Assembly: GCF_002257645.1 (NCBI RefSeq)
Contig: NZ_NQMO01000001.1
Coordinates: 574,065-606,064, forward strand
DNA length: 32,000 nucleotides
Source: Paenibacillus sp. XY044
GTDB taxonomy: Bacteria; Bacillota; Bacilli; Paenibacillales; Paenibacillaceae
Direction: 5' to 3'
Shown: positions 6,701-24,149 of the stretch, one piece after another
Layout: each line of letters begins with the position of its first letter
How positions within the stretch are numbered: the stretch's first letter is position 1
Made by a program: the position numbers and the translations under genes
The notes under the pieces: generated by a model
Told to the model about the DNA's origin: nothing
The model's database searches: none
Seen by the model: only the letters and a program-made list of their open reading frames with translations

Positions 6701-6997
6701 GAAAGAACTTATGGTAATTCAAAAACATATTATCCAATGCCTTACTTGTCGCCTGAAACATGGTTTTTCTACAAAGAAGCTTATGACATGGATATGTTTA
6801 GAGTAGTGGACATGATTTCAACGATTCAACAACATATTGATCAGGGCATCAGCTTTACATTGTTTATGAAAGACACTCATACAACTAGAGATTTAAATAG
6901 AATCGATTTGTATGCTCATCACAAGGGAATCAAAACGCTCTATTATGCCCGAACAAAAGATACATCTAGAGAAGTATGCTTGTCATGCTCAGTTTAA
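3749..6997 (+). CDS. nrdE: Ribonucleotide reductase class Ib alpha subunit NrdE, interrupted in frame by an intein
   Basis: Colinear with B. subtilis NrdE as I remember it ([42 protein letters not shown]...[44 protein letters not shown]-terminal CLSC). The exteins total 698 aa after removing the 384-aa insert. Confidence 0.93.
4886..6037 (+). mobile_element. Intein (384 aa) with a LAGLIDADG homing-endonuclease domain inside nrdE
   Basis: It starts with Cys in CVTGDTKLL directly after FSNL and ends at ...NGIVTGN. The next residue is the Cys of CSEILQ. Block B is ATGWHKM. The two LAGLIDADG motifs are [14 protein letters not shown] and [14 protein letters not shown]. Confidence 0.88.
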
Positions 6998-7017
6998 ATA
7001 AGAGGGAGAATAAACAA

Positions 7018-7992
7018 TTGACTAAAATTTTTGATGCTGCAAATTGGTCTAAACAAGACGATTCATTTACACAGGTTTTCTATAATCAAAATGTCAGACA
7101 ATTTTGGCTACCAGAGGAGATTTCCCTAAACGGGGATCTCCTGGCTTGGAAGTCGATGAGTGGACTAGAAAAAGATACATATAAAAAAGCTTTAGCGGGT
7201 CTTACACTGTTGGATACAGAACAAGGCAATACTGGAATGCCAAAGATTTCTGAACACGTAGAAGGACATCAACGGAAAGCAGTTCTTAATTTTATGGCGA
7301 TGATGGAGAACGCAGTGCATGCTAAATCCTATTCGAATATTTTCATGACACTTGCTCCAACAGAAGAGATTAACGAATTGTTTGAGTGGGTCAAAGATAA
7401 TAAATACCTTCAAAAGAAAGCAGAAGTTATTGTTGGTCTTTATAAAAACATCAAGGATAACGATGAAATTGCACTTTATAAAGCAATGGTTGCATCTGTT
7501 TTCTTGGAAAGTTTCTTGTTCTACAGCGGATTTTATTATCCTCTTCTCTGCTATGGTCAAGGCAAGATGATGCAAAGTGGAGAAATCATTAATTTAATTA
7601 TCCGTGACGAAGCTATCCATGGGGTTTACATCGGTCTATTAGCACAAGAAATCTATAATAAACAAGATGAAAAAACAAAAAATGAACTTATCATCTTTAC
7701 AACCAACCTGCTCGAAGACCTTTATGAAAACGAACTTCGTTATACAGAAGTTGTTTACGACCAAATTAGCTTGGCACACGATGTGAAAAAGTTCGTTCGA
7801 TACAATGCAAACAAAGCTTTGCAAAACCTGGGGTTCGATGTCTTCTTTCCAGAGGAAGAAGTAAATCCTGTTGTAATCAATGGATTAAATACAAAAGCAA
7901 AGTCACATGATTTCTTTAGCATGAAAGGCAGTTCATATCAAAAAGCGAATGTCGAGAGCCTAAAAGATGAAGACTTTTACTTCAGTAACTAA
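7018..7992 (+). CDS. nrdF: Ribonucleotide reductase class Ib beta subunit NrdF
   Basis: The TTG at 7018 (GGGAG SD 9 nt upstream) gives [15 protein letters not shown]..., matching the remembered B. subtilis NrdF N-terminus. The di-metal and Tyr-radical region reads [17 protein letters not shown]...LRDEAIHG. The ORF-track start at 6976 lies inside nrdE. Confidence 0.9.
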
Positions 7993-8026
7993 AAAATAAA
8001 TATAATAAGGGAGTAAACAAATACAT

Positions 8027-8812
8027 ATGGAACAACCATTTCAACCGAAACTAAATAAACCATGTTTCATCAAAGGAATTAATAAAAAAGGTATTGTGAA
8101 AGACTCAGAGTTTGCAAAGGAACGTTTTTTGGTCACTTATTTCTCGCGTGATACAGATAAGAGAATCACAACCTGGTTCGATATTACTCAACTTGAAGAG
8201 TATAAGCCGAAAACTAAACGATTAGGAGGGATTGTTGATACTAATAAAATCAATATTCCTACTCCTGACATGGTTTTAACGAATGAACAGATTGAATCAT
8301 TCTCTAAAATTTTTGAAACTAACACAAGTAATATCTCAACAAGAATCTCGAATTGCATGAAAGAGGTTGGTCGTAAACTGAATTCACTTCAAATCAAAGT
8401 AAAATACTTTGCAGACATCGAACCTCTAAATAAAATCAGTAAGGGAGACTGGATCGATCTGCGTTCCGCAGTAGATATCGAATTAAAAAAAGGCGAATAT
8501 GCACTAATTCCATTGGGTGTTGGCATGAAGCTGCCTGAAGGATATGAAGCAAACCCGGTACCAAGAAGCAGCACATTCAAAAATTTCGGTATTATCCAGA
8601 CAAATCACTTTGGAGTAATTGACAACTCTTATTCGGGGAATGAAGATCAGTGGCATTTCCCTGCGCTTGCTATGCGAGATACTGTAATTAAGAAGAACGA
8701 TAGAATTTGTCAATTTCGTATTCAAGAATTGATGCCGGAAGTTGAATTTATTACTGTTGATAAACTTGATGATGTTTCAAGAGGCGGTTTTGGAAGCACA
8801 GGAAAGAATTAA
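8027..8812 (+). CDS. dut: dUTPase (trimeric type) with an N-terminal extension of about 120 aa of unknown function
   Basis: The C-terminal 140 aa resemble SPbeta YosS and B. subtilis YncF ([52 protein letters not shown]). Residues 1-120 match nothing I recognise. Confidence 0.85.
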
Positions 8813-8814
8813 AA

Positions 8815-9387
8815 ATGGATATAATCAATGATAAACTTATTTTAACTGACTCACAAAAAAGAATCGTGGAAGCATATAATAGAGGATATCGAGTAACTCC
8901 CGAAGGAGTGTTTTTAAATCGGCATGGTGTAGCTTTGTCTATAGAGCTTAAAAGTAAACAAAGATACCCGTCTCGTCAAATTTCTATTAATGGAAAGAAA
9001 AAGAATTATTATATACATCGCCTGGCAGCATATTGTTTTTATGGCGATGAAGTGTTTAAAGAATACATACAAGTAAGACATCTTAATGGTAATGTCCTGG
9101 ACATATCCAAAAGTAATTTAGCGCTAGGAACTTGCTCTGAGAATCATCATGATAAAAGTCCCGAAGTCAGAAAATGTTCAGCAACTAAAGCATCGCATTC
9201 AAGAAAGAATGTAACAATGAGAACATTGAGAAAATTAACAGACGAACAGGCTTTAAATGTAAAGATGTTACTTCATCAAGGAGTAGACTGCGTGACAATC
9301 TCAAAAATGTATAAAGTTAGCGATGAGACGATTCGTCAAATTAAGAATGGATTAACTTATAAAGAAATTAAACTAAAGGAGATTTAA
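8815..9387 (+). CDS. Free-standing HNH homing endonuclease with a C-terminal HTH
   Basis: HNH_3-like core YYIHRLAAYCFYGD...VRHLNGNVLDISKSNLALGT...ENHHDK. The C-terminal HTH-like segment is VTISKMYKVSDETIRQIKNG. It is wedged between dut and thyX. Confidence 0.75.
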   Translation: MDIINDKLILTDSQKRIVEAYNRGYRVTPEGVFLNRHGVALSIELKSKQRYPSRQISINGKKKNYYIHRLAAYCFYGDEVFKEYIQVRHLNGNVLDISKSNLALGTCSENHHDKSPEVRKCSATKASHSRKNVTMRTLRKLTDEQALNVKMLLHQGVDCVTISKMYKVSDETIRQIKNGLTYKEIKLKEI

Positions 9388-9396
9388 ACATAATAT

Positions 9397-10089
9397 ATGA
9401 ATAATAAAATTGAAGTATTGAATTGTGGGTACGTAAGACTGCTAGACTCTTTTGGAGACGACCTGATGGTTGTTAATAACGCTAGAGCATCTTATGATAA
9501 AGAAGTGTCAGAGCTTAGTGAGAAAGATATTCGACTCATCAAATTTTTAGCTCGTGAAGGACATATGTCTCCTTTTAGAACACCACGCTTACAATTTGAA
9601 GTGTATGCCCCTTTGTTTGTGGCTCGTCAGTGGTGGCGCTACACAGTTGATAGTTCACATATTGAAGATGGTACAACTTGGTCGGAATCGAGTAGACGAT
9701 ACATTACTGAAAATACAGAATTTTACCTGCCAGATAAAAACGAGTGGAGAAGTAAACCACTAAACAGTAAACAGGGGTCTGGAGATATTCTTCCGGAGGA
9801 AATCGGTCATATTCTTACAGAAAAATTAGCCCAACTTTACGATGAAGGCGAAAAGCTTTATCAAGTAGCAATGGATATGGGAGCCGCACCAGAGCAGGCC
9901 CGATTATTCCTACCTGCTTATGGATTGATGGTACGCTGGAGATATTCTGCATCACTACAATCTATTTGCCATTTTCTTTCTCAACGCCTAGAACACGATG
10001 CTCAGAAGGAAATCCAAGACTATGCGAAAGCTGTGCTTGAGCTAACCAAAGAAAAATTCCCAGTAAGTATTAAAGAATTAATAAAATAA
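9397..10089 (+). CDS. thyX: Flavin-dependent thymidylate synthase ThyX
   Basis: EGHMSPFR...FEVYAPLFVARQWWRY...SESSRRY fits the ThyX signature (RHR...S.RY type), and the size of 230 aa is consistent. Confidence 0.8.
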   Translation: MNNKIEVLNCGYVRLLDSFGDDLMVVNNARASYDKEVSELSEKDIRLIKFLAREGHMSPFRTPRLQFEVYAPLFVARQWWRYTVDSSHIEDGTTWSESSRRYITENTEFYLPDKNEWRSKPLNSKQGSGDILPEEIGHILTEKLAQLYDEGEKLYQVAMDMGAAPEQARLFLPAYGLMVRWRYSASLQSICHFLSQRLEHDAQKEIQDYAKAVLELTKEKFPVSIKELIK

Positions 10090-10121
10090 CTATATACATA
10101 ATCAAAAAATCGTGGTATATT

Positions 10122-10153
10122 AAGTACAGGAAATCAATCCTGTACTTTTTTCT
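10122..10153 (+). terminator. Rho-independent terminator closing the nrd-dut-thyX operon
   Basis: Perfect 10-bp stem AAGTACAGGA / TCCTGTACTT with loop AATCAA, followed by TTTTTTC. Confidence 0.8.
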
Positions 10154-10186
10154 TTGATAACTAAATAAGGGGAGTGATAGTTAAGA

Positions 10187-10693
10187 GTGTACATGCTTCT
10201 GAATGTAGTACCAACATTGATTTTATTAGTGATCATCAAGTACCGGCATAAACTCTTCGAACAAGAGTGGGATGTTCTTAAGCAGCGCAAAACATGGGAA
10301 TCCATCTTTTATTCATTCTGCATTTCATTTATGGGATACAGTTTACTTACCAGCATCTCATTCTACATGTTAGATCCACCAACGGTACATAAAACTCAGA
10401 CACCAATTATGATTATATACTCGGTATTATTCAGTCCGATATTTGAGGAGTTGATATGTAGAAAGTTCTTACTGAACAAACTAAGTAAATATATAAATAA
10501 TAATTTATCGATATTGGTCAGTTCTTGTGTATTTGCAACTCTTCATTTCGACGTTACAAGTTTTCTTGGATACACCTTCTTGGGAATTGTATGGAGCTTT
10601 TACTACAAAAAAACTAACAGCATCTTCGTACCAATTATAAGCCATTTTTTATTCAATTATTTCGTAATTCTAATTCAATCTGTAAAGGGATGA
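10187..10693 (+). CDS. CPBP-family (CAAX protease / Abi) intramembrane metalloprotease
   Basis: Multi-TM protein with all three CPBP motifs: FEELICRKF (EExxxR), FATLHF (FxxxH) and SHFLFN (HxxxN). GTG at 10187 or ATG at 10193. Confidence 0.75.
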   Translation: MYMLLNVVPTLILLVIIKYRHKLFEQEWDVLKQRKTWESIFYSFCISFMGYSLLTSISFYMLDPPTVHKTQTPIMIIYSVLFSPIFEELICRKFLLNKLSKYINNNLSILVSSCVFATLHFDVTSFLGYTFLGIVWSFYYKKTNSIFVPIISHFLFNYFVILIQSVKG

Positions 10694-10935
10694 TACATAT
10701 TAAAGTTAACGATTTGATCAAACATATTGTTTCAATTTGCTGTGACGGAGAAGTGATCAAAGCAACGAATTTTGTAATGGGTGAAACTTATACATATGAG
10801 GGTAAGAAGTACGAATTAAATGAAGATTTCTATAATGAACTCGTTAAGTACCAGGAGTATTCGAGCAAACCTTTTAAAGTGGTTCGGTTAGGAAATAGCA
10901 AGGTTGTAAACGTAACTGGGAAAAGAGTGCTCTAA
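10690..10935 (+). CDS. hypothetical phage protein
   Basis: The ATG overlaps the CPBP stop (ATGA). Confidence 0.5.
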   Translation: MIHIKVNDLIKHIVSICCDGEVIKATNFVMGETYTYEGKKYELNEDFYNELVKYQEYSSKPFKVVRLGNSKVVNVTGKRVL

Positions 10936-11106
10936 ATGAAGGTTTTTAAAGATCTAATACATATGTTGTTTTGGAGTCGGATGTTTGAGGAAGTTAGAGA
11001 AGGACATAAAGAGATTTGCTACAACCTTGGAAAATCTGATGCAATAAAACAAATGAATAATCAATTTTATATTGAGTTCTCTAATAGCAAAGGAGAGATT
11101 AGATGA
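10936..11106 (+). CDS. hypothetical small protein (56 aa, below the ORF-track cutoff)
   Basis: Hand-translated as MKVFKDLIHMLFWSRMFEEVREGHKEICYNLGKSDAIKQMNNQFYIEFSNSKGEIR. It starts 1 nt after the upstream stop, and its stop overlaps the next ATG (ATGA). Confidence 0.45.
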   Translation: MKVFKDLIHMLFWSRMFEEVREGHKEICYNLGKSDAIKQMNNQFYIEFSNSKGEIR

Positions 11107-11390
11107 AGGTAAAATCAAAGGTTATTGAGCAATATAAGGAACTGTGCCCTTTTAGTTACGCTAAGTGTGAATCAATCACAGATGTTGAATATAAAATCAA
11201 ACGTGCTGTACAACTTGGTACACACATAGCAACTTTTGAGGGTGAGAAGTACATTCAATACTACTATAACTGCTTCGTGGTTAAAGGAAATAAAGTAATA
11301 CATATGTTTAAGAACATGGATAAATACATAGATATTCGAGAATCGGTTAAAACAGCATACGACAGGCTAGAAGGAAAGATATTAGTATGA
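11103..11390 (+). CDS. hypothetical phage protein
   Basis: AAAGGAGAG SD 5 nt upstream of the ATG. Confidence 0.55.
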   Translation: MKVKSKVIEQYKELCPFSYAKCESITDVEYKIKRAVQLGTHIATFEGEKYIQYYYNCFVVKGNKVIHMFKNMDKYIDIRESVKTAYDRLEGKILV

Positions 11391-11788
11391 ATAAAGAAGG
11401 AGGAATGAATCTCATGTGTAAGGCCATTGAATATGGAACTTTTTTAACTGATACATTTAGCAAAATGAAAGAGGATTATGACAAAATAAAAAGCAAAATT
11501 TCTGAGTATGACAAAAAAGTTAATGGCATTTATCACGAAATCGAAACCAGCAACTTGAATGCTTCTGAAGGTTATAAGAAGTATAAAGAGCTCCGCCAAA
11601 CACTTAGGATGAGAAGAGTTCTAAAGCAGGAGTTCTATACCTTAGAGAAACTCATGTATAAGACATTTGATGTCGATAGAATTAGCAGTCAAATACATAA
11701 AACTCTTCAGAGTGCGAAGGCATCTGAAGTTGGCAATCAACAGTATCGAAATGGTTGGGATATCGATGTAGACGTTATTATTGGCTAA
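11387..11788 (+). CDS. hypothetical phage protein (coiled-coil)
   Basis: ATGA overlap with the upstream gene. An internal GAAGGAGG at about 11396-11403 suggests an alternative start at ATG 11414. Confidence 0.55.
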   Translation: MNKEGGMNLMCKAIEYGTFLTDTFSKMKEDYDKIKSKISEYDKKVNGIYHEIETSNLNASEGYKKYKELRQTLRMRRVLKQEFYTLEKLMYKTFDVDRISSQIHKTLQSAKASEVGNQQYRNGWDIDVDVIIG

Positions 11789-11882
11789 TCCATTGAGTTG
11801 ATGAAAGCCGTCTTTTATCAGGATTTTAGGCTAGAAAACAAGAGAATAAGTGAGCAAAAGAGAGAAAATAGGAGAAAGTTAA

Positions 11883-12191
11883 ATGAAGGAAATTAAATAT
11901 TTGCAACATCCTCAAAATGGTGAATGGTATAAGGCAATTGGCAACAATCCAGATGGGACACTAATTCTTGAACCGGCCGCAGAAACCGAAGTCCATTTAA
12001 TGAAAGAAAAAGAAAAATGGGCAGCATGGAATCGTAACATTAATGAATTTAAAGTTGGGGATATCGTTTGGGACGGAGATCGTATTGTTCAAATTACCAA
12101 CCCTCCATTAGATGAATTTATCTCTCGATGTAAGATGATTTGTCCAGTCGAGTGGAGAGTTGATGAACTCAAGGAGGCAACCCATGGATAA
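11883..12191 (+). CDS. hypothetical phage protein
   Basis: AGGAGA SD 7 nt upstream of the ATG. Confidence 0.55.
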   Translation: MKEIKYLQHPQNGEWYKAIGNNPDGTLILEPAAETEVHLMKEKEKWAAWNRNINEFKVGDIVWDGDRIVQITNPPLDEFISRCKMICPVEWRVDELKEATHG

Positions 12192-12516
12192 ACAAACTGA
12201 GCGCCTGATAAGCGCTGATGGAATATTGTCATGGATTAATGGAGTCCTTATAGAAACGGACAGTGAACCGATTAGATATATGTTTTCCTGCTTAAAGGAG
12301 AGATTGGAGAACGGAGCCTTCGACCAAGATCCCATCCCCTTACCCACCTTAAAACCTTGGGATAAGGTACGGCATAAGCAATACCGAACTTCCGGAATCA
12401 TTAATGGAATAGATGAAAAGGGCATCGCTGCATATGTAAGTTGGGAAACCGGACAACAATCGTGGTATCCATTGAATCATTTGGAACTGGCGGAGGCGAG
12501 AGAAGATGTCAAATAA
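12184..12516 (+). CDS. hypothetical phage protein
   Basis: AAGGAGG sits 6 nt upstream of ATG 12184 (MDKQTERL...). The ORF-track start at 12160 lacks an SD. Confidence 0.55.
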   Translation: MDKQTERLISADGILSWINGVLIETDSEPIRYMFSCLKERLENGAFDQDPIPLPTLKPWDKVRHKQYRTSGIINGIDEKGIAAYVSWETGQQSWYPLNHLELAEAREDVK

Positions 12517-12772
12517 ACCAATCAAGCCATCATTTGAAGAAATCAAAATCAAACTGGAACCTGATCAATGTTTCTTTTATCAACGTGAGTCTGACGGAGA
12601 CATTGTTCTGGTGGATGAAATAGAAATATTCGCTTATGCCAAGCAGATTACATTGATTGGAACACATTTTTCAGTCGATTATGAAGATAAAACAATCAAC
12701 AAGGCATCGGATCGGAGCTTCATGAACTTTGAAACCAACCTATTGGGCGAATATTCGGAAGGTGAGGGTTAA
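12506..12772 (+). CDS. hypothetical phage protein
   Basis: Overlaps the upstream gene by 11 nt. 88-aa ORF. Confidence 0.5.
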   Translation: MSNKPIKPSFEEIKIKLEPDQCFFYQRESDGDIVLVDEIEIFAYAKQITLIGTHFSVDYEDKTINKASDRSFMNFETNLLGEYSEGEG

Positions 12773-12774
12773 AG

Positions 12775-12984
12775 ATGTCAGATAATCGGGACTGGCAAGC
12801 AGATATGGAACGGAAAATAGGAGAACTCGTTCAAGTAAAAGGAGATAACATGCGTTACGATTGGACAATTCGTCTCAAAAAGTGGCATGAGGAAACAGGA
12901 CAAAGTATTTACTTTATAACCCGGCCTGGATATGAGGGATGGTTTAGCAACGCAGCTCTAATGGATAAGGAGGCTGAAGCATGA
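12775..12984 (+). CDS. hypothetical phage protein
   Basis: GAGGG SD 6 nt upstream of the ATG. Confidence 0.5.
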   Translation: MSDNRDWQADMERKIGELVQVKGDNMRYDWTIRLKKWHEETGQSIYFITRPGYEGWFSNAALMDKEAEA

Positions 12985-13118
12985 CACCTAATTACTATAT
13001 GATGTGGATTGAACTTGAAGAAGAAATCAGACGCTTAGAAGAAATAGGCCATACAGATATAGATTTAGGAGACCTGCAACGAATCATGCATGAACTATAT
13101 CTAGACAATAGGGATTGA
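12981..13118 (+). CDS. hypothetical small protein (45 aa, below the ORF-track cutoff)
   Basis: Hand-translated as MTPNYYMMWIELEEEIRRLEEIGHTDIDLGDLQRIMHELYLDNRD. ATGA overlap with the upstream stop. Confidence 0.45.
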   Translation: MTPNYYMMWIELEEEIRRLEEIGHTDIDLGDLQRIMHELYLDNRD

Positions 13119-13208
13119 ATATAAGGAGAATGAGGCACGATCAACTAGATCGTGGAACTTAAAAGATTAAATAAAAGTATAGTTTTATCAAAATAAAGGA
13201 GGAGCAAA

Positions 13209-13496
13209 ATGAAGTTATTCAGAGTGAAAAACAAATTTTCTGGTTATGGTTTGGTAACTTATGTTGTATATGCCAAAGACGAATCAGAAGCAATAAACTT
13301 GGCGGGTGAAAAGTTAAGAGAGTATGCGCTTAAAACTAACTATAATGTTAATGAAGCAGCATATGCTCAGGTCGGAATAAAAGTTAATAATATCTTTGAA
13401 TTAATTGATACAGAAGACTACCATACATATTTTAGTGCAAAATGTTTGTCGGAGGATATTGAGGAAGAACAGATTGTTGAGATGCATTATTTCTAA
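13209..13496 (+). CDS. hypothetical phage protein
   Basis: AAAGGAGGAG SD 5 nt upstream of the ATG. Confidence 0.6.
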   Translation: MKLFRVKNKFSGYGLVTYVVYAKDESEAINLAGEKLREYALKTNYNVNEAAYAQVGIKVNNIFELIDTEDYHTYFSAKCLSEDIEEEQIVEMHYF

Positions 13497-13523
13497 TACA
13501 TATTTAGAGGAGCGATTAAATAA

Positions 13524-13694
13524 TTGAATATTGTTTTCTTTTGGATTTGGTTTGTATTTATGATCGTTCAACTCGTATATGTTGGCATTTATAAAACACT
13601 GAAATGGAAGCCATTGAAATGGAATCAATTAGGCTGGTTTTCCTTAGGATTACTCGATGCCTATCTCACTGGTTTGCTACTAAATTGGAGGTAA
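13524..13694 (+). CDS. small membrane protein (56 aa, two predicted TM segments)
   Basis: Hand-translated from TTG 13524 as MNIVFFWIWFVFMIVQLVYVGIYKTLKWKPLKWNQLGWFSLGLLDAYLTGLLLNWR. AGAGGAG lies 11 nt upstream. An alternative ATG at 13560 gives 44 aa. Confidence 0.4.
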   Translation: MNIVFFWIWFVFMIVQLVYVGIYKTLKWKPLKWNQLGWFSLGLLDAYLTGLLLNWR

Positions 13695-13695
13695 T

Positions 13696-13836
13696 ATGAA
13701 GAAAATTCTAAAGAACTTATGGAATGTTCACAGAGAACAATATCCCACTGACAAAGAAGAATGGATTGTCTTTATCTCTATCTATGTAATTATGCTGCTA
13801 ATTTGTTTAATGGGATACTCGGCTACTTACCTATAA
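13696..13836 (+). CDS. small membrane protein (46 aa, one predicted TM segment)
   Basis: Hand-translated as MKKILKNLWNVHREQYPTDKEEWIVFISIYVIMLLICLMGYSATYL. GGAGG lies 4 nt upstream. Confidence 0.45.
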   Translation: MKKILKNLWNVHREQYPTDKEEWIVFISIYVIMLLICLMGYSATYL

Positions 13837-13877
13837 CCAAATAAAAACCATATTTTATAGTGAAAGGAGTGTAATAC

Positions 13878-14120
13878 ATGTTTATCGGTTTCCCTTTAAG
13901 TGGAGCGTTATGGGGATTTGTAATTATGGTGGCCAGTATTATATTTTGGAACCTACAAACATTTGTTTTTTCTCTGTTATTGATGATCATATGCTTAATT
14001 ACAACGTACAGACTGTATGAATATTCACAATGGAAAGGAATGCAGCATGATAAACAATTTAAAGGATTACATAACTCTGATTTGCAGTTTGATGATAATG
14101 ATTCCACTATTAAAAGATAA
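13878..14120 (+). CDS. small membrane protein (80 aa, two predicted TM segments)
   Basis: GAAAGGAG SD 8 nt upstream. The N-terminal half is hydrophobic and the tail is polar. Confidence 0.55.
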   Translation: MFIGFPLSGALWGFVIMVASIIFWNLQTFVFSLLLMIICLITTYRLYEYSQWKGMQHDKQFKGLHNSDLQFDDNDSTIKR

Positions 14121-14155
14121 AATACATAGCTGGCTGAAAAAGAGGAGAGAGTATT

Positions 14156-14488
14156 TTGAAAAATGAAATTGTTCAATACTTTGTAGTAAACAAAGAACTC
14201 AATATGTCACCAGGTAAAATAGCGGCACAAGTAGCGCATGTAGCAACTAACATTACCCACAATGATAACGAAACAAGATTGTGGAGTGAATGGTATGCAA
14301 ATGACCAACCGAAAATCATCCTTCGAGGAAAAGAAAGGGATTTACTTAAACTCATCGAGCAGGGATGGTATTACATACGAGATAATGGAAGGACAGAGAT
14401 TCCAGAGAATTCTTTGACAGTCGTAGGTTGTGCTCCAAATTATAAGTCTGAGCTTCATAAGCAGGTAAAAAGGTTTCAGCTTCTTTAG
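14156..14488 (+). CDS. PTH2-family (archaeal/eukaryotic-type) peptidyl-tRNA hydrolase
   Basis: SPGKIAAQVAHVA ... W..NDQPKIILRG ... IRDNGRTEIPENSLTVVGCAP ... FQLL is colinear with the PTH2 family as I remember it (GKGKIAAQVAHAA ... GQPKIVVK ... DAGKTQ..PGT.T.LGIGP ... LKLL). TTG start after an AAGAGGAGAGAG SD. Confidence 0.75.
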   Translation: MKNEIVQYFVVNKELNMSPGKIAAQVAHVATNITHNDNETRLWSEWYANDQPKIILRGKERDLLKLIEQGWYYIRDNGRTEIPENSLTVVGCAPNYKSELHKQVKRFQLL

Positions 14489-14522
14489 TAATAGAGGTGT
14501 TGAACAATGCATTTTAAGAGGA

Positions 14523-14753
14523 GTGATTATTATTTATCTTAGTGAAGCCATCAAAAAAAGACAGCAACTACTAGAAAAAGCTCAAGCAATGGAAAAATGG
14601 GCATTAGATCAGGAGCATGGAACTAAGCAGTTAGTTTGGTTCGAGATGAAAAAAGCAATTAATCAAGTCATCGAAGATACATATGAGGAATGGCAGAGGT
14701 ACAACGAAGCCGTTGAAAAGGATATTAATCAACTGCAAATAGAAATCAGATGA
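14523..14753 (+). CDS. hypothetical phage protein (start uncertain)
   Basis: The ORF-track GTG at 14523 overlaps the last base of the SD AAGAGGAG (14516-14523). An in-frame ATT at 14532 has 8-nt spacing. Confidence 0.45.
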   Translation: MIIIYLSEAIKKRQQLLEKAQAMEKWALDQEHGTKQLVWFEMKKAINQVIEDTYEEWQRYNEAVEKDINQLQIEIR

Positions 14754-14780
14754 AACATAAACTTGTAGGAAGTGATAAAA

Positions 14781-15263
14781 ATGCTTGTACTGGGTAAGAC
14801 CGAATTGATGCAACTTCTAACCGATCAATTGACAATCATGCTCAGACGAAAACCGAAGAGTGTTGACTTGCATGTTGATTGGACTTATATCGACTACGAT
14901 AAGAAAAATAGAGAGTACTATTTTGATACAAAGAAGAAAGATTGGAAATATATAATTAAACTTCATGATGGATATACATATAGATATCTCGATACGGTTT
15001 GTGTTAGACAATTGATTAGGCATGAGTATTTGGACGCTAAGGACATACATATCGATATTCGTATTAAAGACAATTTTGATTTATTGAACACCAAGACAAT
15101 TGAAGAGGTTGTTAAATTAATGGATATTACGGCAAATATAGAACTTGATAATGAAGTATTATTAAGCAAAGAGGAAATTAAAAACCTAATTGATCTTTCT
15201 CTGGACATGGGGAACAAAGAAATGTTTATGGAGTATACGGCACAATACAATAGTTATATATAA
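14781..15263 (+). CDS. hypothetical phage protein with a C-terminal IDEAL-like motif
   Basis: ATG 14781 lies 8 nt after the AGGAAG SD. The C-terminal LIDLSLDMGNKEMFMEYT resembles the IDEAL-domain consensus (IDEALD.GDKE.F..LT). Confidence 0.55.
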   Translation: MLVLGKTELMQLLTDQLTIMLRRKPKSVDLHVDWTYIDYDKKNREYYFDTKKKDWKYIIKLHDGYTYRYLDTVCVRQLIRHEYLDAKDIHIDIRIKDNFDLLNTKTIEEVVKLMDITANIELDNEVLLSKEEIKNLIDLSLDMGNKEMFMEYTAQYNSYI

Positions 15264-15275
15264 AATAAAAATACA

Positions 15276-15304
15276 TATACTATTACTTTATAATGTGATA
15301 TAAT
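15276..15304 (+). promoter_or_regulatory. Extended -10 promoter for the actin-like cassette
   Basis: TGaTATAAT at 15296-15304, with a weak -35 TATACT at 15276-15281 (17-nt spacer). It lies in a 114-nt intergenic gap. Confidence 0.45.
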
Positions 15305-15377
15305 CTCTAATATAAGATGTAGCACAAAAGGGAACAGGGCGCCACGCTGTGTCTCTCTTTATATTGGGAGGTTAATC

Positions 15378-16325
15378 ATGAGTTCAGAATTATGTGTGTT
15401 TGATCTTGGATTCAGTTGGTCTAAAGGTAAGAAGAAGAATAAACTATATCTGCAGCCTTCTATTTATGGTGAAGGAAAGCCGATCTTTGAAGGAAGTATT
15501 AAGCAAGATGATTTTATCTTCAACGAAGATCTGTTTGTGGGCAAACTAGCTTTAAGACATAGTGACATCAAATATTTCTCACTTAATGACAATAAAACCG
15601 AAGCAATGACATCCGATGTTCTTATGAAGACCGGATTAGGATATCTAAATGGTAACAATCCATTTAACCTGGTTACTGGTTTGCCTGTTAAATTCTACTT
15701 CTCACAGAAAGACCATATGAAAGATATGATCGAGAGACTTGGGACATCAGAGAAATATGAAGTTAAAAAGGGAAATGGAAAGCCTCACATCATTAAGCTA
15801 AATATAGATAAATACAAAATTGTACCACAGGGATATGGTATTGCAATGGACTTTCTTCTTACCTCAGATGGTAGAATTAAAAATAGTGGAATAGCTAAGA
15901 AAAAGATACTCGTTATTGACCTTGGTTTCTATACATTAAATCTTCTTGGTTTAGACAAGATGGAAATTATGAAGGAGTCAACTAGCATTATATTAGGTGT
16001 TGAAAAGGCATATAGACTCCTTCAGACATATCTCCAAAAAGTAGTGGGCAAGTCTCCATCAATTTATGAAATGGATGCCTGCGTTATAGAGGGAAAGTAT
16101 GAGGGGTATGATATCAGACCATTAATTCAAAAAGCCTTTAAACCTTTATCAAAACAGATTCAAAATGAAGTCGAAAGCCTGAATATTAATTTTGATTATC
16201 ATCTGATTGGAGGAGGTGCAGCCCATAATGTATTTGAACAAATTAACCTACCCAACAAAATTCTCTTTGATCAACTAGCACAAATAAGAGGCTATGAAAA
16301 TGTAGGTGTTCGGTTATGGAAATGA
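15378..16325 (+). CDS. Actin-like ATPase of the ParM/Alp superfamily
   Basis: The actin-fold motifs appear in order: phosphate-1 VFDLGFSWSKG, phosphate-2 VIDLGFYTLNL, adenosine motif HLIGGGAAH. The length is 315 aa and a GGGAGG SD is present. Confidence 0.7.
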   Translation: MSSELCVFDLGFSWSKGKKKNKLYLQPSIYGEGKPIFEGSIKQDDFIFNEDLFVGKLALRHSDIKYFSLNDNKTEAMTSDVLMKTGLGYLNGNNPFNLVTGLPVKFYFSQKDHMKDMIERLGTSEKYEVKKGNGKPHIIKLNIDKYKIVPQGYGIAMDFLLTSDGRIKNSGIAKKKILVIDLGFYTLNLLGLDKMEIMKESTSIILGVEKAYRLLQTYLQKVVGKSPSIYEMDACVIEGKYEGYDIRPLIQKAFKPLSKQIQNEVESLNINFDYHLIGGGAAHNVFEQINLPNKILFDQLAQIRGYENVGVRLWK

Positions 16326-16597
16326 AAATCTTGAGAGCACGATTACGAAAACATAAAGACAAAGATCTGCAAGAAGCAATGAGCAAAATACCTATATATT
16401 ATGATCAAAGCGATATTATAAGAGAAGCCTTAAGACAGTTTTTATTTGGTCATCAAGGAAGAGAACCGCAATTACTTGGTAGTGAAATCATGAAGGATAT
16501 TGGTAAAGTAGAAGAGGAAGAATTAGTTGAATTAGAAGAAATTGAGGTAACTGATGAAGATTTAGAGGCGAAGTTAGATGAGTTTATTTTAAAGTAG
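16316..16597 (+). CDS. Ribbon-helix-helix-like small DNA-binding protein with an acidic tail (ParR-like adaptor candidate)
   Basis: The basic N-terminus KILRARLRKHKDKDL is followed by helices ending IIREALRQFLF. The C-terminus is highly acidic (VEEEELVELEEIEVTDEDLEAKLDEFILK). It overlaps the actin-like gene by 10 nt. Confidence 0.5.
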   Translation: MEMKILRARLRKHKDKDLQEAMSKIPIYYDQSDIIREALRQFLFGHQGREPQLLGSEIMKDIGKVEEEELVELEEIEVTDEDLEAKLDEFILK

Positions 16598-16610
16598 GCA
16601 TTTGCCTACT
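16593..16610 (+). terminator. Short hairpin overlapping the stop codon (weak terminator candidate)
   Basis: AGTAGGC / GCCTACT 7-bp stem with a 4-nt loop, followed only by TT. Confidence 0.3.
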
Positions 16611-16645
16611 TTAATACATAAATATAACTATATAAGGAGGTTAAA

Positions 16646-17020
16646 GTGAGTCGACATAAAAAGTTCATTGCATTTTGTCTTAAGAAAGCTAGGAAGAATC
16701 GTATCGATAATTACCGACTTGCAGCGACGATAATCAAGGGAGGCAGAGTTATTGCTGTAGGAGTCAACTCAAATAAGGCCGGTTGTCTAATTGACCCATT
16801 GTACGAAAACAAGGGAGTTCATGCTGAATTGGATGCACTTTGCAAACTCTCTGAGAAGCAAATAAAGGGATCAATTATGTATGTAGCAGGTTGGAGTAAG
16901 GCAAACAATATGATCACCTCAAAACCCTGTCCAAAGTGTCAGGAATACATGAAAAAGTTTGATTTGAAAGCAGTATACTATTCGATGCCGAATGGTGAAT
17001 ATGAGGAGTTAACTATTTAG
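16646..17020 (+). CDS. CMP/dCMP-type zinc deaminase (probable dCMP deaminase)
   Basis: Zinc-ligand motifs HAELDAL and PCPKCQEYM. GTG start 5 nt after AAGGAGG. Confidence 0.7.
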   Translation: MSRHKKFIAFCLKKARKNRIDNYRLAATIIKGGRVIAVGVNSNKAGCLIDPLYENKGVHAELDALCKLSEKQIKGSIMYVAGWSKANNMITSKPCPKCQEYMKKFDLKAVYYSMPNGEYEELTI

Positions 17021-17033
17021 AGGAGGTGGTTAA

Positions 17034-17207
17034 TTGAATTTAGAGTTATTCACTAAATACTATGTAGATTGCGGAGGTAGTGATGAGTTTCAAGGTTGGA
17101 ATTTGATTGTGCTGCGAACAAAACCATTTCAATTTAGATGGTTCACGGATTGTGGTTATCATTTCTTATACATTAATTTGGGTAAGAAGTGTTGGAGAGT
17201 TGTTTGA
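17034..17207 (+). CDS. hypothetical small protein (57 aa, below the ORF-track cutoff)
   Basis: Hand-translated from TTG 17034 as MNLELFTKYYVDCGGSDEFQGWNLIVLRTKPFQFRWFTDCGYHFLYINLGKKCWRVV. AGGAGG sits at 17021-17026. Confidence 0.45.
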   Translation: MNLELFTKYYVDCGGSDEFQGWNLIVLRTKPFQFRWFTDCGYHFLYINLGKKCWRVV

Positions 17208-17252
17208 TGGCATTTAATTTTATACAGATAACTATTATGAAAGGAGTAAACA

Positions 17253-18236
17253 TTGATAGTGAAGCTATGTGAGATTTGCGGTTCCGGTGAAAGAGTGAGC
17301 TTTGTTAAGAAATCTAGGAACGAAAAGTATTTAGGAATGAATATATGTCATAAACATCGTCAGCAAATTTATAGAAATGGCAAAATAACTGATAATATGC
17401 GTTCACGAAGAAATGATGAAAGGATCTGCGATATTTGCAAAGACGGATTTGACGTAAGGCAATGTGGATTAAATGGGAACTATAATGGTTTTTTATTGTG
17501 TCGAAAGCATTATCACCAAGTAAGAGCGACTGGTAGCATAGTTGATGCAAATAAAAGCCACCGTGATAGAGATAGGATTTGCGAGGTGTGCAATAAGGAA
17601 GATGCTATTTATTGCAGCGAGTTAGATAAGATGCTTTGCAGAAGACACTATGATCAAGTTTGGAATTATGGAAAGATTTTCGAAAGGACTGTTTTCGATT
17701 CGAATGATATCGTTAAATATGATACATATGCAGAAGTGATTTTGTATAATTCTAAGCACATTGAAAAAGGAAGGGTAAAAATAGATTTAGAAGATGTGGA
17801 GCATCTTTCAAAATATAAATGGTATCTTGATACATGGGGTTATGCTTCTACTGGCAATGGAAATGGAGGCACAAAGTCAGTGATGATGCAAAGGTTAATC
17901 ATGGATGTAGAGAAAGGAGAGATTGTTGATCATATAAATAGAGACACGCTAGATAATCGGAAAGAGAACTTGAGAATTGCCGATAAATCATTGAATGCTG
18001 TAAATGCAGGTTTGCGTACCAATAATACAAGTGGCGTTACGGGAGTATCTTTCAACAAACATGCAAACTGTTGGCGAATTTATATTAACTACCAGGGAAA
18101 GCGTATAGAGTTAGGTTATAAAAAGGACTATTGCGATGCAGTTGTAGCGAGATTATTAGCTGAAAAGGAATACTATCCAGAACATCCACCACAAAAACAT
18201 CTATTCGAAGAATATGGGGTATTATACGATGAGTGA
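17253..18236 (+). CDS. HNH homing endonuclease with an AP2 DNA-binding domain and three N-terminal Cys/His repeats
   Basis: HNH_3-like KWYLDTWGYAS...DHINRDTLDNRKENLRIADKSLNAVN. AP2-like SGVTGVSFNKHANCWRIYINYQGKRIELGYKKD. Three CxxC...CxKH..Q(I/V)...G(K/S)I units occupy residues 5-148. Confidence 0.75.
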   Translation: MIVKLCEICGSGERVSFVKKSRNEKYLGMNICHKHRQQIYRNGKITDNMRSRRNDERICDICKDGFDVRQCGLNGNYNGFLLCRKHYHQVRATGSIVDANKSHRDRDRICEVCNKEDAIYCSELDKMLCRRHYDQVWNYGKIFERTVFDSNDIVKYDTYAEVILYNSKHIEKGRVKIDLEDVEHLSKYKWYLDTWGYASTGNGNGGTKSVMMQRLIMDVEKGEIVDHINRDTLDNRKENLRIADKSLNAVNAGLRTNNTSGVTGVSFNKHANCWRIYINYQGKRIELGYKKDYCDAVVARLLAEKEYYPEHPPQKHLFEEYGVLYDE

Positions 18237-21200
18237 TAACTACGTCTTATACCATCTGCACTCCGATGCAAGTAATCCATCGAGTTCAATGTCTATGGAC
18301 TCAATAACTAAATTTGAAGAATATATTAATGCCGCCGAAAAAAACGAGATGACTGCTATCTGCTTCTCGGAACATGGGAATATCTTCAACTGGGTTAACA
18401 AGAAGAAAACAGTTGAATCCAAAGGATTAAAATACATACATGCGAACGAAGTTTATCTTACCGAACACAATGATAGAGAGCGTGGTTTAATAAGAGATAA
18501 TTATCACTATATGCTTATTGCAAAAAATTGGGATGGGGTCAAGGAGTTAAACAAACTAACATCCATTTCGAATGATAAGCTTGATGGTCATTATTACTAT
18601 AATCCTCGCGTAACGTTTGAGGAACTATTCAATACTTCAGATAACATAATTATGACCTCAGCCTGTCTTGCTTCGCCATTATGGAGAGCACTAAAAAATG
18701 ATAATAAGCAGATGCTAAACATGTTTATGGATTTCTTTGTGAAAAATAAGCATCGTATGTTTTTTGAAATTCAGTATCACTCACACCCAGAACAAAAATT
18801 ATTCAACCAACATCTATACGAACTATCTAAGGAGACAGGTATTCCTTTGATTGCTGGCACTGACACTCATGCTTTGAATAGAGATCAGGCAGAGGCAAGA
18901 AAGATACTTATGAAGGCAAAGGGTGCTACGTATGGAGACGAAGATTCTTTTGATTTAACATTTAAAACTTATCCCGAACTAGTGAGAATGTTTGAAGAGC
19001 AAAGTGCAATCCCACGAAGCGCTTATCTGGAGGCTATTTACAACACCAATGTAATGGCGAATATGGTTGAAGAGTTCACTTTAGATAAGTCAGCTAAATA
19101 TCCTAAGATTCACGAAGATTCAGAGAAGGTGTTTAAAGAAAAAATTAATATCGGTGTAAAAGAGCATGGAATTAATAAATTCCAAACTGAGAAGCGACAA
19201 GAGTATTTCAAGAGAATACGTGAAGAGTTTGATACATATAAAGCCGTAGGTGCAATAGACTACATGCTGCTGCAGAAAGATGTTGTTGATTGGGCACATA
19301 GCAACGGAATATATCAAGGATATGGTAGGGGATCGGTAAACGGAAGTTTAATTGCGTACCTGTTGAAGATCACTGAAATGGACAGTATTAAGCACAAATT
19401 GAACTTCTTCAGATTCCTTAATCCAGAACGCATCTCTCTAGCTGATATTGATCTGGATTGGCCACCAAGTAAAAGACAGGATGTTATTGATTATGTAGCA
19501 TCAATACCAGGGATTCATTTTTCTGAGATAATCACATTTAACACTATCGCACTAAAAGGAGCCATTAGAGAAGTTGGGCGAGCTTTAGGTATGGAATTAT
19601 CCTTAGTCGATGAGATAGCAAAATCCGTATTCAAAGATGAGAAAAAGAAGGATACCGTAGATCGTCGGTATAGAGAACAGTACCCAGAACTATTCAAATA
19701 TGTGGATTTGGTACAGGGAGTAATAATGAGTATTGGTTCTCACCCATCTGGATATGTTGTATCGCCAATTAGCTTGGACGATAATATTGGGTTGTGCTTC
19801 ACCAAGGAGAGTAAATATCCTGTTAGTCAAATCAATATGAAAGAGCTAGATGGATTAAACTATGTAAAGCTTGATATCCTTGGACTTGATAACATCGAAA
19901 TCATTAACGAAACGTGTAAACTAGCAGGAATTGATAGATTGGTTCCAGACAACATGGACGTTAATGATGAGAATGTTTGGAACTCAATTAGAGAATCGGG
20001 CTTAGGGATATTTCAATGGGAAAGCGTTAGCGCTCAAGCCTACCTCAAAGACCTGTTGAGTCCTGAAACAATACATAAAATCAAACAGCAACACCCGAAC
20101 TTTAGTTACATTGAGTTATTTTCAATTGGAAATGGTGCAATCCGACCATCAGGTGACTCATATAGACAGGCGTTGGCAAACGGAATATTTAAAGATCACG
20201 GTCACTCTGCACTAAATAAGTTCTTGGAAAATACAATCGGATATCTCGTTTATCAAGAACAAATCATGAATTTCCTGGTTGAGTTCTGCGATTTCTCAAT
20301 GGCTGAAAGCGATAGTGTAAGGCGGGGATTGTCAAAAAAAGAAGGCACTGAAAAGTTTTTGCCAGAGATTCGAAAAAGATTTATTAATAAAATGATAAAA
20401 GAATATCAAGAGACTGAAGAAGCTGCCATTTCAGTACTTGAACCATTTTTGCAAGTTATTGATGATGCCCAGCGCTATGGATTTTCTGATAACCATTCGA
20501 ATCCTTATTCTCATATCGGTTACGGAAATGGATACTTACGCTATTATTATCCGTTGGCCTTCTTAACGGTAATGCTGAATATAAATAAGGACGACATCGA
20601 GAAGACAGGTCAGATAATTGAATATGCAAAGACAAGAGGAATTGAAATATCGCCAATCAAGTTTGGTAAATCTGGATCATCTTATTCTTATAACGAAACT
20701 GATAATATGATTTACAAAGGATTAGAATCTATAAAGTTCCTTAATGCTAATATTGCAAACGAGCTGCTCCAATTAAGCAAAAATAAATATAGTGATTTCA
20801 TGTCCTTGCTAGCCGATGTAACAGAAAAAACATCGGTAAATTCAAAACAGTTAAAGATTCTAATCAGACTCAACTTTTTTTCCGAGTTCGGTAATAGCAG
20901 TCTCCTTCTTAAACTACATGAAGAGTTCTCTGAAGGAAAGATAAAATACGGTAAAAACTTAAAGTCAAAACTGCAAAGGTTAGAGAGTTTGATTGAATAT
21001 GAGCATAAGATCAGAAAAGAAGACTCTATTCCTGATACATTGCCAAATGACGAAGTGATGTTTCACAAGGAGATGTTAGGTTATGCCGATATTAAATATC
21101 CTCATGTCTCTCCTGGATGGTGTGTTCTTACTGAATTGGATACCAAGTATTCTCCCAAATTAACACTATACAACCTAAAAACCGGACAAGAACGAATATT

Positions 21201-21405
21201 TAAGATGGACAAGAAAACATTTAACGTAAAAGATAATTCTTTGAAAATTAATAAGGGCGATTTGATTAGGATTGATAGCTTCATAAAGAAACAGAGGCAA
21301 GTACCTGACGGCAAGGGCGGTTTTAAACCAACTGATCAAACAGATGTATGGATAACAGGTTACACAAAATACAGCGACAAGGAGACTTTAAATGGAATTA
21401 AGTAA
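18229..21405 (+). CDS. DnaE-type DNA polymerase III alpha subunit (phage-encoded, SPbeta YorL-like)
   Basis: PHP domain YHLHSD...CFSEHGN...IHANEVY. Polymerase core GRGSVNGSLIAYLLKITEMD...FFRFLNPERISLADIDLDW, KLDILGLDN and LVYQEQIMNF. ATG 18229 overlaps the HNH stop (ATGAGTGA); the in-frame ATG at 18214 is an alternative. Confidence 0.9.
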   Translation: MSDNYVLYHLHSDASNPSSSMSMDSITKFEEYINAAEKNEMTAICFSEHGNIFNWVNKKKTVESKGLKYIHANEVYLTEHNDRERGLIRDNYHYMLIAKNWDGVKELNKLTSISNDKLDGHYYYNPRVTFEELFNTSDNIIMTSACLASPLWRALKNDNKQMLNMFMDFFVKNKHRMFFEIQYHSHPEQKLFNQHLYELSKETGIPLIAGTDTHALNRDQAEARKILMKAKGATYGDEDSFDLTFKTYPELVRMFEEQSAIPRSAYLEAIYNTNVMANMVEEFTLDKSAKYPKIHEDSEKVFKEKINIGVKEHGINKFQTEKRQEYFKRIREEFDTYKAVGAIDYMLLQKDVVDWAHSNGIYQGYGRGSVNGSLIAYLLKITEMDSIKHKLNFFRFLNPERISLADIDLDWPPSKRQDVIDYVASIPGIHFSEIITFNTIALKGAIREVGRALGMELSLVDEIAKSVFKDEKKKDTVDRRYREQYPELFKYVDLVQGVIMSIGSHPSGYVVSPISLDDNIGLCFTKESKYPVSQINMKELDGLNYVKLDILGLDNIEIINETCKLAGIDRLVPDNMDVNDENVWNSIRESGLGIFQWESVSAQAYLKDLLSPETIHKIKQQHPNFSYIELFSIGNGAIRPSGDSYRQALANGIFKDHGHSALNKFLENTIGYLVYQEQIMNFLVEFCDFSMAESDSVRRGLSKKEGTEKFLPEIRKRFINKMIKEYQETEEAAISVLEPFLQVIDDAQRYGFSDNHSNPYSHIGYGNGYLRYYYPLAFLTVMLNINKDDIEKTGQIIEYAKTRGIEISPIKFGKSGSSYSYNETDNMIYKGLESIKFLNANIANELLQLSKNKYSDFMSLLADVTEKTSVNSKQLKILIRLNFFSEFGNSSLLLKLHEEFSEGKIKYGKNLKSKLQRLESLIEYEHKIRKEDSIPDTLPNDEVMFHKEMLGYADIKYPHVSPGWCVLTELDTKYSPKLTLYNLKTGQERIFKMDKKTFNVKDNSLKINKGDLIRIDSFIKKQRQVPDGKGGFKPTDQTDVWITGYTKYSDKETLNGIK

Positions 21406-21517
21406 AAAGCAAATTGAAAAAATATTAGGAAAGAATATCTCGGATTCAGATTATATTGAATATTTAATTTATACGTATCAGCAGCTCAAAAAGGACGAAG
21501 AAAATGGGCAGTCTTGA
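21392..21517 (+). CDS. hypothetical small protein (41 aa, below the ORF-track cutoff)
   Basis: AAGGAG lies 7 nt upstream. Hand-translated as MELSKKQIEKILGKNISDSDYIEYLIYTYQQLKKDEENGQS. It overlaps both neighbours. Confidence 0.4.
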   Translation: MELSKKQIEKILGKNISDSDYIEYLIYTYQQLKKDEENGQS

Positions 21518-21734
21518 TAGATTTGAAAATCCATACTACCAAAAACGATTCCCTGATCCACAAGAAAAGGAAGTGATGGAATACTCAACTTGTTCGGGGT
21601 GCAGAAAGATTGTAACCAATCAAGAAGTTGATGATGGTGAGGTTTTAGATGTCTACGGAATGGTCGTTCATGATGATTATTCATGTTTGAAAAAAGCAGT
21701 AGAAGCAAGAACAATTTATTTAGATAAGGAATGA
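21504..21734 (+). CDS. hypothetical small Cys-containing protein
   Basis: ORF-track ORF containing a CSGC pair. Confidence 0.5.
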   Translation: MGSLDRFENPYYQKRFPDPQEKEVMEYSTCSGCRKIVTNQEVDDGEVLDVYGMVVHDDYSCLKKAVEARTIYLDKE

Positions 21735-21738
21735 TTTA

Positions 21739-22266
21739 TTGACTCACCTATATGCCTTTGATTTAAGTATGGAGTGCACAGGATTAACAATATTCGATTT
21801 AGAATCTGTGCTTCCTGTATTAGTAGCTAGCATTTCGACATCACATTTCAGGAAGAACGCCACACATGGACAAAAACTAAAATACATAGAAGATGAAATT
21901 ATTAAGATTGGCAAGAAATATGCTCCCTCAGTCGTTGCAATTGAACGCGGATTTAGCAGGTTTAATACAAGTACACAAGTGATATATAGAGTTCATGGCG
22001 TGATAAATAAACTCTTTCACAATTATGAGCAAATATATTATCCTCCCAAAACAGTAAAAGAAGCTATCTGTCGTGGAGACGCAACAAAGAAGTACGTACA
22101 AGAAACAATACATAAGGTTTATCCAGATATTAATTTTAGCAATGAAGATGAATCTGACTCGTTCGCCATAGCATTAACTTATCTCATTAAAAATGATTTG
22201 ATCAAGTGGAACAAAGTTGAGATTAAAAAGAAAAAAGCAAAAGAGAAAGCATCAAAAGAGGAATAG
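21739..22266 (+). CDS. RuvC-like Holliday junction resolvase
   Basis: The catalytic acidic residues sit in the expected contexts: YAFDLS, VVAIERGF and DESDSFAIAL. The tail is basic. TTG start 8 nt after AAGGA. Confidence 0.7.
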   Translation: MTHLYAFDLSMECTGLTIFDLESVLPVLVASISTSHFRKNATHGQKLKYIEDEIIKIGKKYAPSVVAIERGFSRFNTSTQVIYRVHGVINKLFHNYEQIYYPPKTVKEAICRGDATKKYVQETIHKVYPDINFSNEDESDSFAIALTYLIKNDLIKWNKVEIKKKKAKEKASKEE

Positions 22267-22299
22267 GACAAATTGTGAAGGGAGTATTGATATACAGAG

Positions 22300-24130: not shown

Positions 24131-24149
24131 GGTTGAGTACATATATTTT

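Follow-up and report, generated by a model that had tools for sequence, protein, structure and literature searches.

Peptidyl-tRNA hydrolases of the archaeal and eukaryotic type (PTH2) have been described from several viruses. The RaK2 genome paper of 2013 already noted a phage PTH2 gene (PMC3622015), and in cluster C mycobacteriophages PTH2 lies inside tRNA arrays (PMC5966550). Iyer et al. (Viruses, 2021) recorded PTH2 across jumbo phages, where it is of the archaeo-eukaryotic type and not the host type, and proposed that the phage enzyme hydrolyses the peptidyl-tRNA left by cleaved tRNAs in ribosome rescue (PMC7824862). The Viral AlphaFold Database paper (Sci Adv 2025) found the prevalence of viral Pth unexpected and proposed that it serves to secure efficient translation, recalling that lambda minigenes are toxic under limiting Pth (PMC12487901). 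Here we describe a PTH2-family protein of 110 amino acids (aa) encoded at 14156-14488 in a stretch of 32,000 nucleotides from Paenibacillus sp. XY044 (contig NZ_NQMO01000001.1, positions 574,065 to 606,064 of the forward strand); this whole stretch is called the window, and all coordinates are window coordinates unless stated otherwise. The product is very probably a PTH2-family hydrolase that, judging by homology, would act on N-blocked aminoacyl-tRNA, and its gene is accessory (non-core) in a Paenibacillus prophage that is probably SPbeta-like. Viral PTH2 as a kind is already known and annotated, and the Paenibacillus prophage copy is an ordinary new example.

The open reading frame (ORF) at 14156-14488 is a real gene. 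An earlier note, made from the letters of this DNA and a list of its ORFs, had described a 110-aa product colinear with PTH2, and the ORF list and the translation show exactly the motifs that it quoted, namely GKIAAQVAHVA, PKIILRG, DNGRTEIPENSLTVVGCAP and a C-terminal QLL. The gene, its ribosome-binding site and the codons of the three presumed active-site residues are as follows.

14156..14488, + strand: PTH2-family peptidyl-tRNA hydrolase gene, 110 aa, TTG start, TAG stop (ORF list and translation)
14140..14149, + strand: strong Shine-Dalgarno sequence, AAGAGGAGAG, with its GGAG core 9 nt 5' of the TTG, a normal spacing (read off the sequence)
14216..14218, + strand: codon AAA for K21, the lysine of the GK motif, aligned to the GK lysine in all PDB Pth2 chains shown
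14381..14383, + strand: codon GAT for D76, the aspartate of the DxGxT motif
14393..14395, + strand: codon ACA for T80, the threonine of the DxGxT motif

The TTG start is upheld because N-terminal residues 3-17 are conserved among homologues, with Y8, N12, L15 and M17 invariant in an alignment of 39 relatives (alignment A1). The guanine-plus-cytosine (GC) content of the gene is 37.5%, and 33% at third codon positions (GC3), which agrees with the 35% GC of the prophage and not with the 56% GC of the host. Against its homologue in a prophage of Paenibacillus sp. FSL L8-0435 (locus L004), 73% identical, the gene has a nonsynonymous divergence (dN) of 0.19 with saturated synonymous divergence (dS), which indicates purifying selection; dN/dS against the closest viral relative, locus L095, is not computable, as that copy is frameshifted.

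Assignment to the family rests on profile, fold and active-site positions. The protein matches Pfam PF01981 (PTH2) over its full length (E 7.3e-22, 78.2 bits against a gathering cut-off of 23 bits; residues 6-110 versus profile positions 2-115 of 115) and the unnamed PHROG family phrog_1866 at E 1e-23, and PF01981 is present in all 109 database homologues retrieved. A sequence search of the PDB yields Pth2 proteins only, namely Thermoplasma acidophilum 1RLK, P. horikoshii 1WN2, S. solfataricus 1XTY, A. fulgidus 1RZW/3ERJ, human Bit1 1Q7S and M. jannaschii 2ZV3, with E values down to 5e-21 when a profile of the 39 relatives is used. Bacterial Pth1 (PF01195) gave no family or chain match at E up to 1 in the Pfam, NCBIfam and PDB searches.

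An AlphaFold2 model built on the alignment of 39 relatives has a predicted local distance difference test score (pLDDT) of 96.2 and a predicted template modelling score (pTM) of 0.89. It contains four strands (residues 5-12, 53-58, 72-76 and 86-91) and four helices (19-37, 41-48, 60-68 and 97-104); Pth2 architecture has been described as alpha/beta with four strands and four helices (PMC11202043). The best 14 PDB matches of the model in Foldseek are all Pth2 or Bit1 chains, with template modelling (TM) scores of 0.74-0.84 and with 1xty, 1wn2, 1q7s, 1rlk, 3erj and 2zv3 among the top.

In the PDB chain alignment, the counterparts of K21, D76 and T80 of the window protein in S. solfataricus Pth2 are K18, D86 and T90. 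Mutagenesis by Fromant and colleagues in 2005 reportedly placed these three residues in the Pth2 active site, and on this basis we take them to be active-site positions. K21, D76 and T80 are invariant in 39/39 relatives (alignment A1). Across a wider set of 89 sequences from Bacillota, phages, archaea and human, D76 occurs in 89/89 and T80 in 84/89, and the pattern used to collect the loci did not include D76; K21, Q25 and H28 are likewise found in 89/89, a count biased by the presence of these residues in that pattern. The motifs common to archaeal and human Pth2 (GK, AAQxxH, W, QxK, DxGxT and S/T-x-T) are all kept. The asparagine at position 12, an arginine in the crystallised Pth2s, was considered as a sign of altered specificity and rejected, with N in 55/89 and R in 33/89, archaeal sequences included. 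Sequence profile, predicted structure and the conservation of the active-site positions thus all support the earlier note's placement of the product with PTH2 and not with bacterial Pth1, and the presumed catalytic residues are retained on alignment.

Set beside archaeal and eukaryotic Pth2 (1XTY, 1WN2 and human PTRH2/Bit1 1Q7S), the window protein is similar in length (110 aa versus 115-120), in fold (TM 0.8) and in motifs, including the Lys/Asp/Thr set. It differs in that it is 27-32% identical to them and falls under the NCBIfam equivalog cut-offs, has a helical insert (between helix 1 and strand 2) that is shorter by about 9 residues, and comes from a bacterial prophage and not from an archaeal or eukaryotic genome. 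The annotated viral PTH2 proteins (Bacillus phage G gp325, phiCD211, H1, RaK2 ORF188, Myrna, Atu_ph07 and fowlpox virus; PHROG 1866) belong to the same family, share the fold and come from large genomes, and identity to the Firmicute-phage members is 35-49%; unlike these, the window copy lies in an integrated, probably SPbeta-like Paenibacillus prophage with no tRNA or RNA-repair genes nearby. Chromosomal PTH2 proteins of Bacillaceae are 40-52% identical to it and fall in the same Bacillota clade of a rough neighbour-joining tree, but their genes stand in non-phage contexts, and their subclade is sister to that of the phage and prophage copies. Bacterial Pth1 (E. coli Pth, B. subtilis SpoVC) presumably catalyses the same reaction on peptidyl-tRNA and N-acyl-aminoacyl-tRNA, whereas its sequence and fold are unrelated, its length is 186-194 aa and its active site is His-based.

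Pfam and PHROG scans together with the GC profile place the gene in a low-GC prophage arm, in which every long ORF from 1 to about 24130 is on the + strand. The features of the arm and its junction with the host are listed in order.

1..24171, + strand: right arm of a low-GC (35%), probably SPbeta-like prophage
3403-3756, + strand: NrdI, flanking NrdE
3749-6997, + strand: NrdE (1082 aa), large subunit of a class Ib ribonucleotide reductase; its intein carries a LAGLIDADG homing-endonuclease domain
6976-7992, + strand: NrdF, flanking NrdE
8027-8812, + strand: dUTPase-domain protein, 261 aa, with the domain at residues 144-259 and an N-terminal part of about 140 residues without a Pfam match
8815-9387, + strand: free-standing HNH_3 endonuclease, between the dUTPase and ThyX genes
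10187-10693, + strand: CAAX/Rce1-like (CPBP) intramembrane protease, with a 41% identical copy in the L004/L005 prophage
13524-14120, + strand: three small ORFs (56, 46 and 80 aa) directly 5' of PTH2, hydrophobic and membrane-like by eye
15378-16325, + strand: actin-like protein (ALP/ParM), about 0.9 kb 3' of PTH2, in the same position in L004 (64% identical) and L095 (86%)
17253-18236, + strand: free-standing HNH_3 endonuclease, just 5' of the DnaE-like polymerase gene and overlapping its start
22481..24130, + strand: large serine recombinase with Resolvase, Recombinase and Zn_ribbon_recom domains, the last prophage gene
24173..25051, + strand: 3' remnant (two-thirds) of a host cobW-family GTPase gene, matching PF02492 only from profile position 118, plus CobW_C

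The other genes of the arm are, in order, ThyX (after the first HNH_3 gene), many small unassigned ORFs (after the CAAX protease gene), an IDEAL-domain protein (after PTH2), dCMP deaminase, DnaE-like Pol III alpha and a RuvC-like resolvase. At the junction, near 24172, GC content rises abruptly from 35% to 56%, an unusually large gap between prophage and host. Host ABC transporter and two-component system genes lie beyond the cobW remnant, and the histidine kinase of the host shares 91% identity with its counterpart in Paenibacillus sp. Y412MC10. The GC jump, the cut cobW gene and the Paenibacillus-like flank together identify the window as the right arm of a large prophage that splits a Paenibacillus cobW-like gene; the left arm and the structural genes are outside the 32-kb window. 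A serine recombinase at the end of the prophage is also seen in the gene-interrupting SPbeta and skin elements. The earlier note had called the PTH2 gene phage-encoded, and this is true in the sense of prophage-encoded, in that the 35% GC arm ends in the large serine recombinase and abuts 56% GC Paenibacillus DNA.

The Paenibacillus sp. FSL L8-0435 prophage (L004) has PTH2, ALP, DnaE and serine recombinase genes in the same order, and a 138-kb IMG/VR prophage contig (L095) is also syntenic. YopX and YosH_C domains, seen only in the syntenic relative L004, point to a probable affinity with SPbeta-like phages. SPbeta-like prophages are large temperate phages of Bacillales that bear a ribonucleotide reductase, a DnaE-like polymerase, SPbeta-specific domains and a terminal large serine recombinase interrupting a host gene; the window shows the intein-bearing reductase, the DnaE-like Pol III, the serine recombinase and the cut cobW gene. 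In a tblastn comparison of 27 window proteins with 166 loci, synteny was restricted to two or three related Paenibacillus prophages (L004/L005 and L095), and elsewhere PTH2 alone is shared. A megablast search of window positions 12000-17000 against a GenBank phage collection gave no match, and the prophage is therefore without a close sequenced phage relative at the DNA level.

Shuffled sequence yielded promoter- and terminator-like sites at least as often as the DNA around PTH2 did, and none of the sites there delimits the gene as a unit of its own. PTH2 is therefore read as one member of a long run of co-directional genes, and it is probably transcribed together with the phage replication and nucleotide-metabolism genes. 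Two of the small ORFs 5' of it (13696-13836 and 13878-14120) are kept in the same place in L095, at 67% and 54% identity, respectively. The conservation of ALP suggests actin-based DNA positioning or segregation in the phage group to which this prophage belongs. The two HNH_3 genes are probably homing endonucleases. Members of the CAAX/CPBP family are often involved in bacteriocin immunity or abortive infection.

Homologues of the window protein occur in 18 records of GenBank phages (tblastn), 17 of them from genomes of 130-500 kb and one from a genome of 49 kb, and in several of them the product already bears the name "peptidyl-tRNA hydrolase". The records include the following.

Enterococcus phages: about 134-142 kb, 44-49% identical
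Bacillus phage G: 498 kb
phiCD211 group of C. difficile phages: about 131 kb
Sinorhizobium phage Phosso: 469 kb
An uncultured phage: 484 kb
EBPR siphovirus 2: 49 kb

A structure search of BFVD adds proteins named "peptidyl-tRNA hydrolase" from Agrobacterium phage Atu_ph07, Klebsiella phage RaK2, Mycobacterium phage Myrna, Vibrio phage VH7D, Caulobacter phage CcrBL9, Sinorhizobium phage phiN3, fowlpox virus and several giant viruses. In IMG/VR, a relative is encoded on at least 81 viral contigs, the majority of which exceed 90 kb. That the homologues are found mostly in large genomes fits the habit of large phages of carrying auxiliary translation genes.

Among bacterial genomes, Paenibacillus has the closest relatives (59-85% identical), and a second group at 40-52% identity comprises Rossellomorea, Robertmurraya, Bacillus salacetis, Lysinibacillus and others. 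The chromosomal genes of Bacillaceae (loci L011, L013, L015 and L021-L040, PTH2 at about 6001-6350 of the locus) adjoin the gerA operon and glyoxalase, NUDIX, histidine phosphatase and DCC1-like genes. The proposition that PTH2 in Bacillota is exclusively phage-borne was rejected, as these neighbours cluster as housekeeping and not as prophage genes. Bacillaceae carry this chromosomal PTH2 alongside the essential Pth1. In the rough neighbour-joining tree, Bacillota sequences from phages, prophages and chromosomes form one group apart from the archaeal and eukaryotic ones, with the window protein in the phage/prophage subgroup. This grouping agrees with the lateral acquisition of Pth2 by some bacteria, as stated in a passage of PMC4929431 that cites Powers et al. 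(2005).

The surroundings of PTH2 were compared in the viral loci. The gene lies between thymidylate synthase and DnaE in phage G, adjoins DHFR and FolD in Enterococcus phage H1, where a tRNA array is about 3.4 kb off, and lies in phiCD211 between an anaerobic ribonucleotide reductase and an RtcB-type ligase 1.1 kb away. In G, H1, phiCD211 and this prophage alike, PTH2 is surrounded by genes for nucleotide metabolism and replication. A general linkage to a "tRNA module" was considered and dropped, with a tRNA gene within 5 kb of PTH2 in 5/60 viral loci and none in the window.

The reading we favour is one of translation support. The prophage PTH2 would hydrolyse the ester bond by which the 3' end of tRNA carries a peptide or an N-blocked amino acid, as homology implies, and would do so through the conserved Lys21/Asp76/Thr80 site. 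Intense translation during phage growth would generate drop-off peptidyl-tRNA, Pth activity may then become limiting, and PTH2 would supplement the capacity of the host Pth1 in lytic growth, so that tRNAs trapped as drop-off peptidyl-tRNA could return to the translatable pool. This reading is the most economical, and a translation-support role has also been proposed for viral Pth in PMC12487901. Taken as a whole (a PTH2 hydrolase, encoded by an accessory prophage gene, that supplements host Pth1) we judge the statement somewhat probable, and give roughly even chances to general support of translation being the main role; enzymatic activity, timing of expression and physiological benefit are what we infer.

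Several points weigh against it. The host almost certainly has an essential Pth1, and the need for a second enzyme is not obvious; Pth1 is essential in B. subtilis (spoVC), according to work cited in a passage of PMC4929431. The NCBIfam equivalog models for Pth2 (NF003314 / TIGR00283) are matched below their cut-offs (61.8 versus 126 bits and 49.9 versus 82 bits, respectively), which indicates a divergent PTH2 branch whose substrate range could differ; the prophage protein is a family member by Pfam and, going by these profile scores, not a certified functional equivalog of archaeal Pth2. In L095 (IMG/VR UViG_2907202186_000003, 138 kb; PTH2 at 5001-5340 of the locus), PTH2 carries a 2-nt insertion at about codon 64, which shifts the frame before DxGxT and puts D76 and T80 out of frame, and an 87-aa database entry from Paenibacillus sp. 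HJL G12 (P0048) resembles the same truncated product. The frameshift is either a recent pseudogenisation or an assembly error, and unless it is the latter, PTH2 is dispensable at least for lysogeny or prophage carriage. Finally, the literature search found no experimental study of any phage PTH2 and no measured activity.

The strongest alternative, though in our judgement unlikely, is that phage PTH2 acts in counter-defence and rescues translation when toxins or defence effectors attack tRNA. It might deacylate the N-acetyl-aminoacyl-tRNA made by Gcn5-related N-acetyltransferase (GNAT) toxins of the TacT/AtaT type, or free peptides from peptidyl-tRNA, on or off ribosomes, after cleavage by anticodon nucleases. 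The earlier note had relied on the reversal of TacT acetylation by bacterial Pth; this is established for Pth1 (PMC9241777), and makes the idea biochemically reasonable, but no such result for a PTH2 was found in the literature searched. Iyer et al. class phage PTH2 with RNA-repair and ribosome-rescue adaptations (PMC7824862), and the RtcB-type ligase gene near PTH2 in phiCD211, the tRNA array near that of H1 and the tRNA arrays around the cluster C mycobacteriophage genes (PMC5966550) are in keeping with such a role. The present locus gives a different picture, with 0 tRNA genes in the 32-kb window and no RNA-repair genes found in the prophage arm by the Pfam and PHROG scans. PTH2 and nine neighbouring proteins had no PADLOC match at E up to 0.01, a weak test, as the models are of defence and not of anti-defence. 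Beyond the window, the low count of viral loci with a nearby tRNA gene, the differing neighbourhoods of PTH2 between phage lineages, the chromosomal homologues that Bacillaceae hold in housekeeping contexts and the lack of experimental support in the literature found all speak against it.

Nothing in the window or in the neighbourhood survey specifically favours counter-defence. The broader proposition, that phage and prophage PTH2s are dedicated counter-defence factors which restore the tRNA pool after the action of tRNA-acylating toxins or tRNA-cleaving abortive-infection effectors, is more doubtful still. The earlier note's remark that an anti-defence role is untested as far as its author knew stands, as no experimental paper on phage PTH2 was found; the anti-defence or ribosome-rescue idea itself is not original, being preceded by the proposals of Iyer et al. 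(2021) and of the Sci Adv 2025 paper.

It is improbable that PTH2 is expressed from the prophage, or from an excised form of it, for the benefit of the lysogen, where it might for instance act in the quality control of translation in sporulating or germinating cells. In favour of this, the hosts form spores, the prophage splits a host gene and possesses a large serine recombinase, as do the SPbeta and skin elements that are excised during development, and the chromosomal homologues of Rossellomorea and Bacillus adjoin the gerA germination operon. Yet the gene lies deep in the co-directional replication and nucleotide-metabolism block, with no promoter or terminator site to set it apart, its homologues are also found in strictly lytic phages (Enterococcus phages of the Herelleviridae type and phage G), and the adjacency to gerA may be coincidence.

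The least probable reading, a PTH2 fold that acts on another ester or amide (an acylated RNA or a nucleotide of phage metabolism) or serves as a non-catalytic binding protein, can draw on the scores under the NCBIfam thresholds and on the repeated occurrence of PTH2 among nucleotide-metabolism genes in unrelated phages, but all archaeal and human Pth2 motifs are retained, the sole class-level difference, N12 for R, is also found in many archaeal sequences, and the Foldseek match is global. It can also draw on a tRNA-dependent DNA hypermodification pathway that has reportedly been described in phages of late.

The result adds one prophage copy to a viral PTH2 family that has been annotated or discussed since at least 2013. 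The real question is why phages of Pth1-bearing bacteria repeatedly keep an unrelated PTH2. A model for this could be an inducible, probably SPbeta-like prophage of a Paenibacillus that can be cultivated, or relatives of the prophage in Bacillus. Counter-defence, if true, would be a new anti-defence mechanism, the enzymatic reversal of aminoacyl-tRNA modification, across large phages. Routine tRNA recycling, if true, would account for a share of the large-phage translation toolkit.

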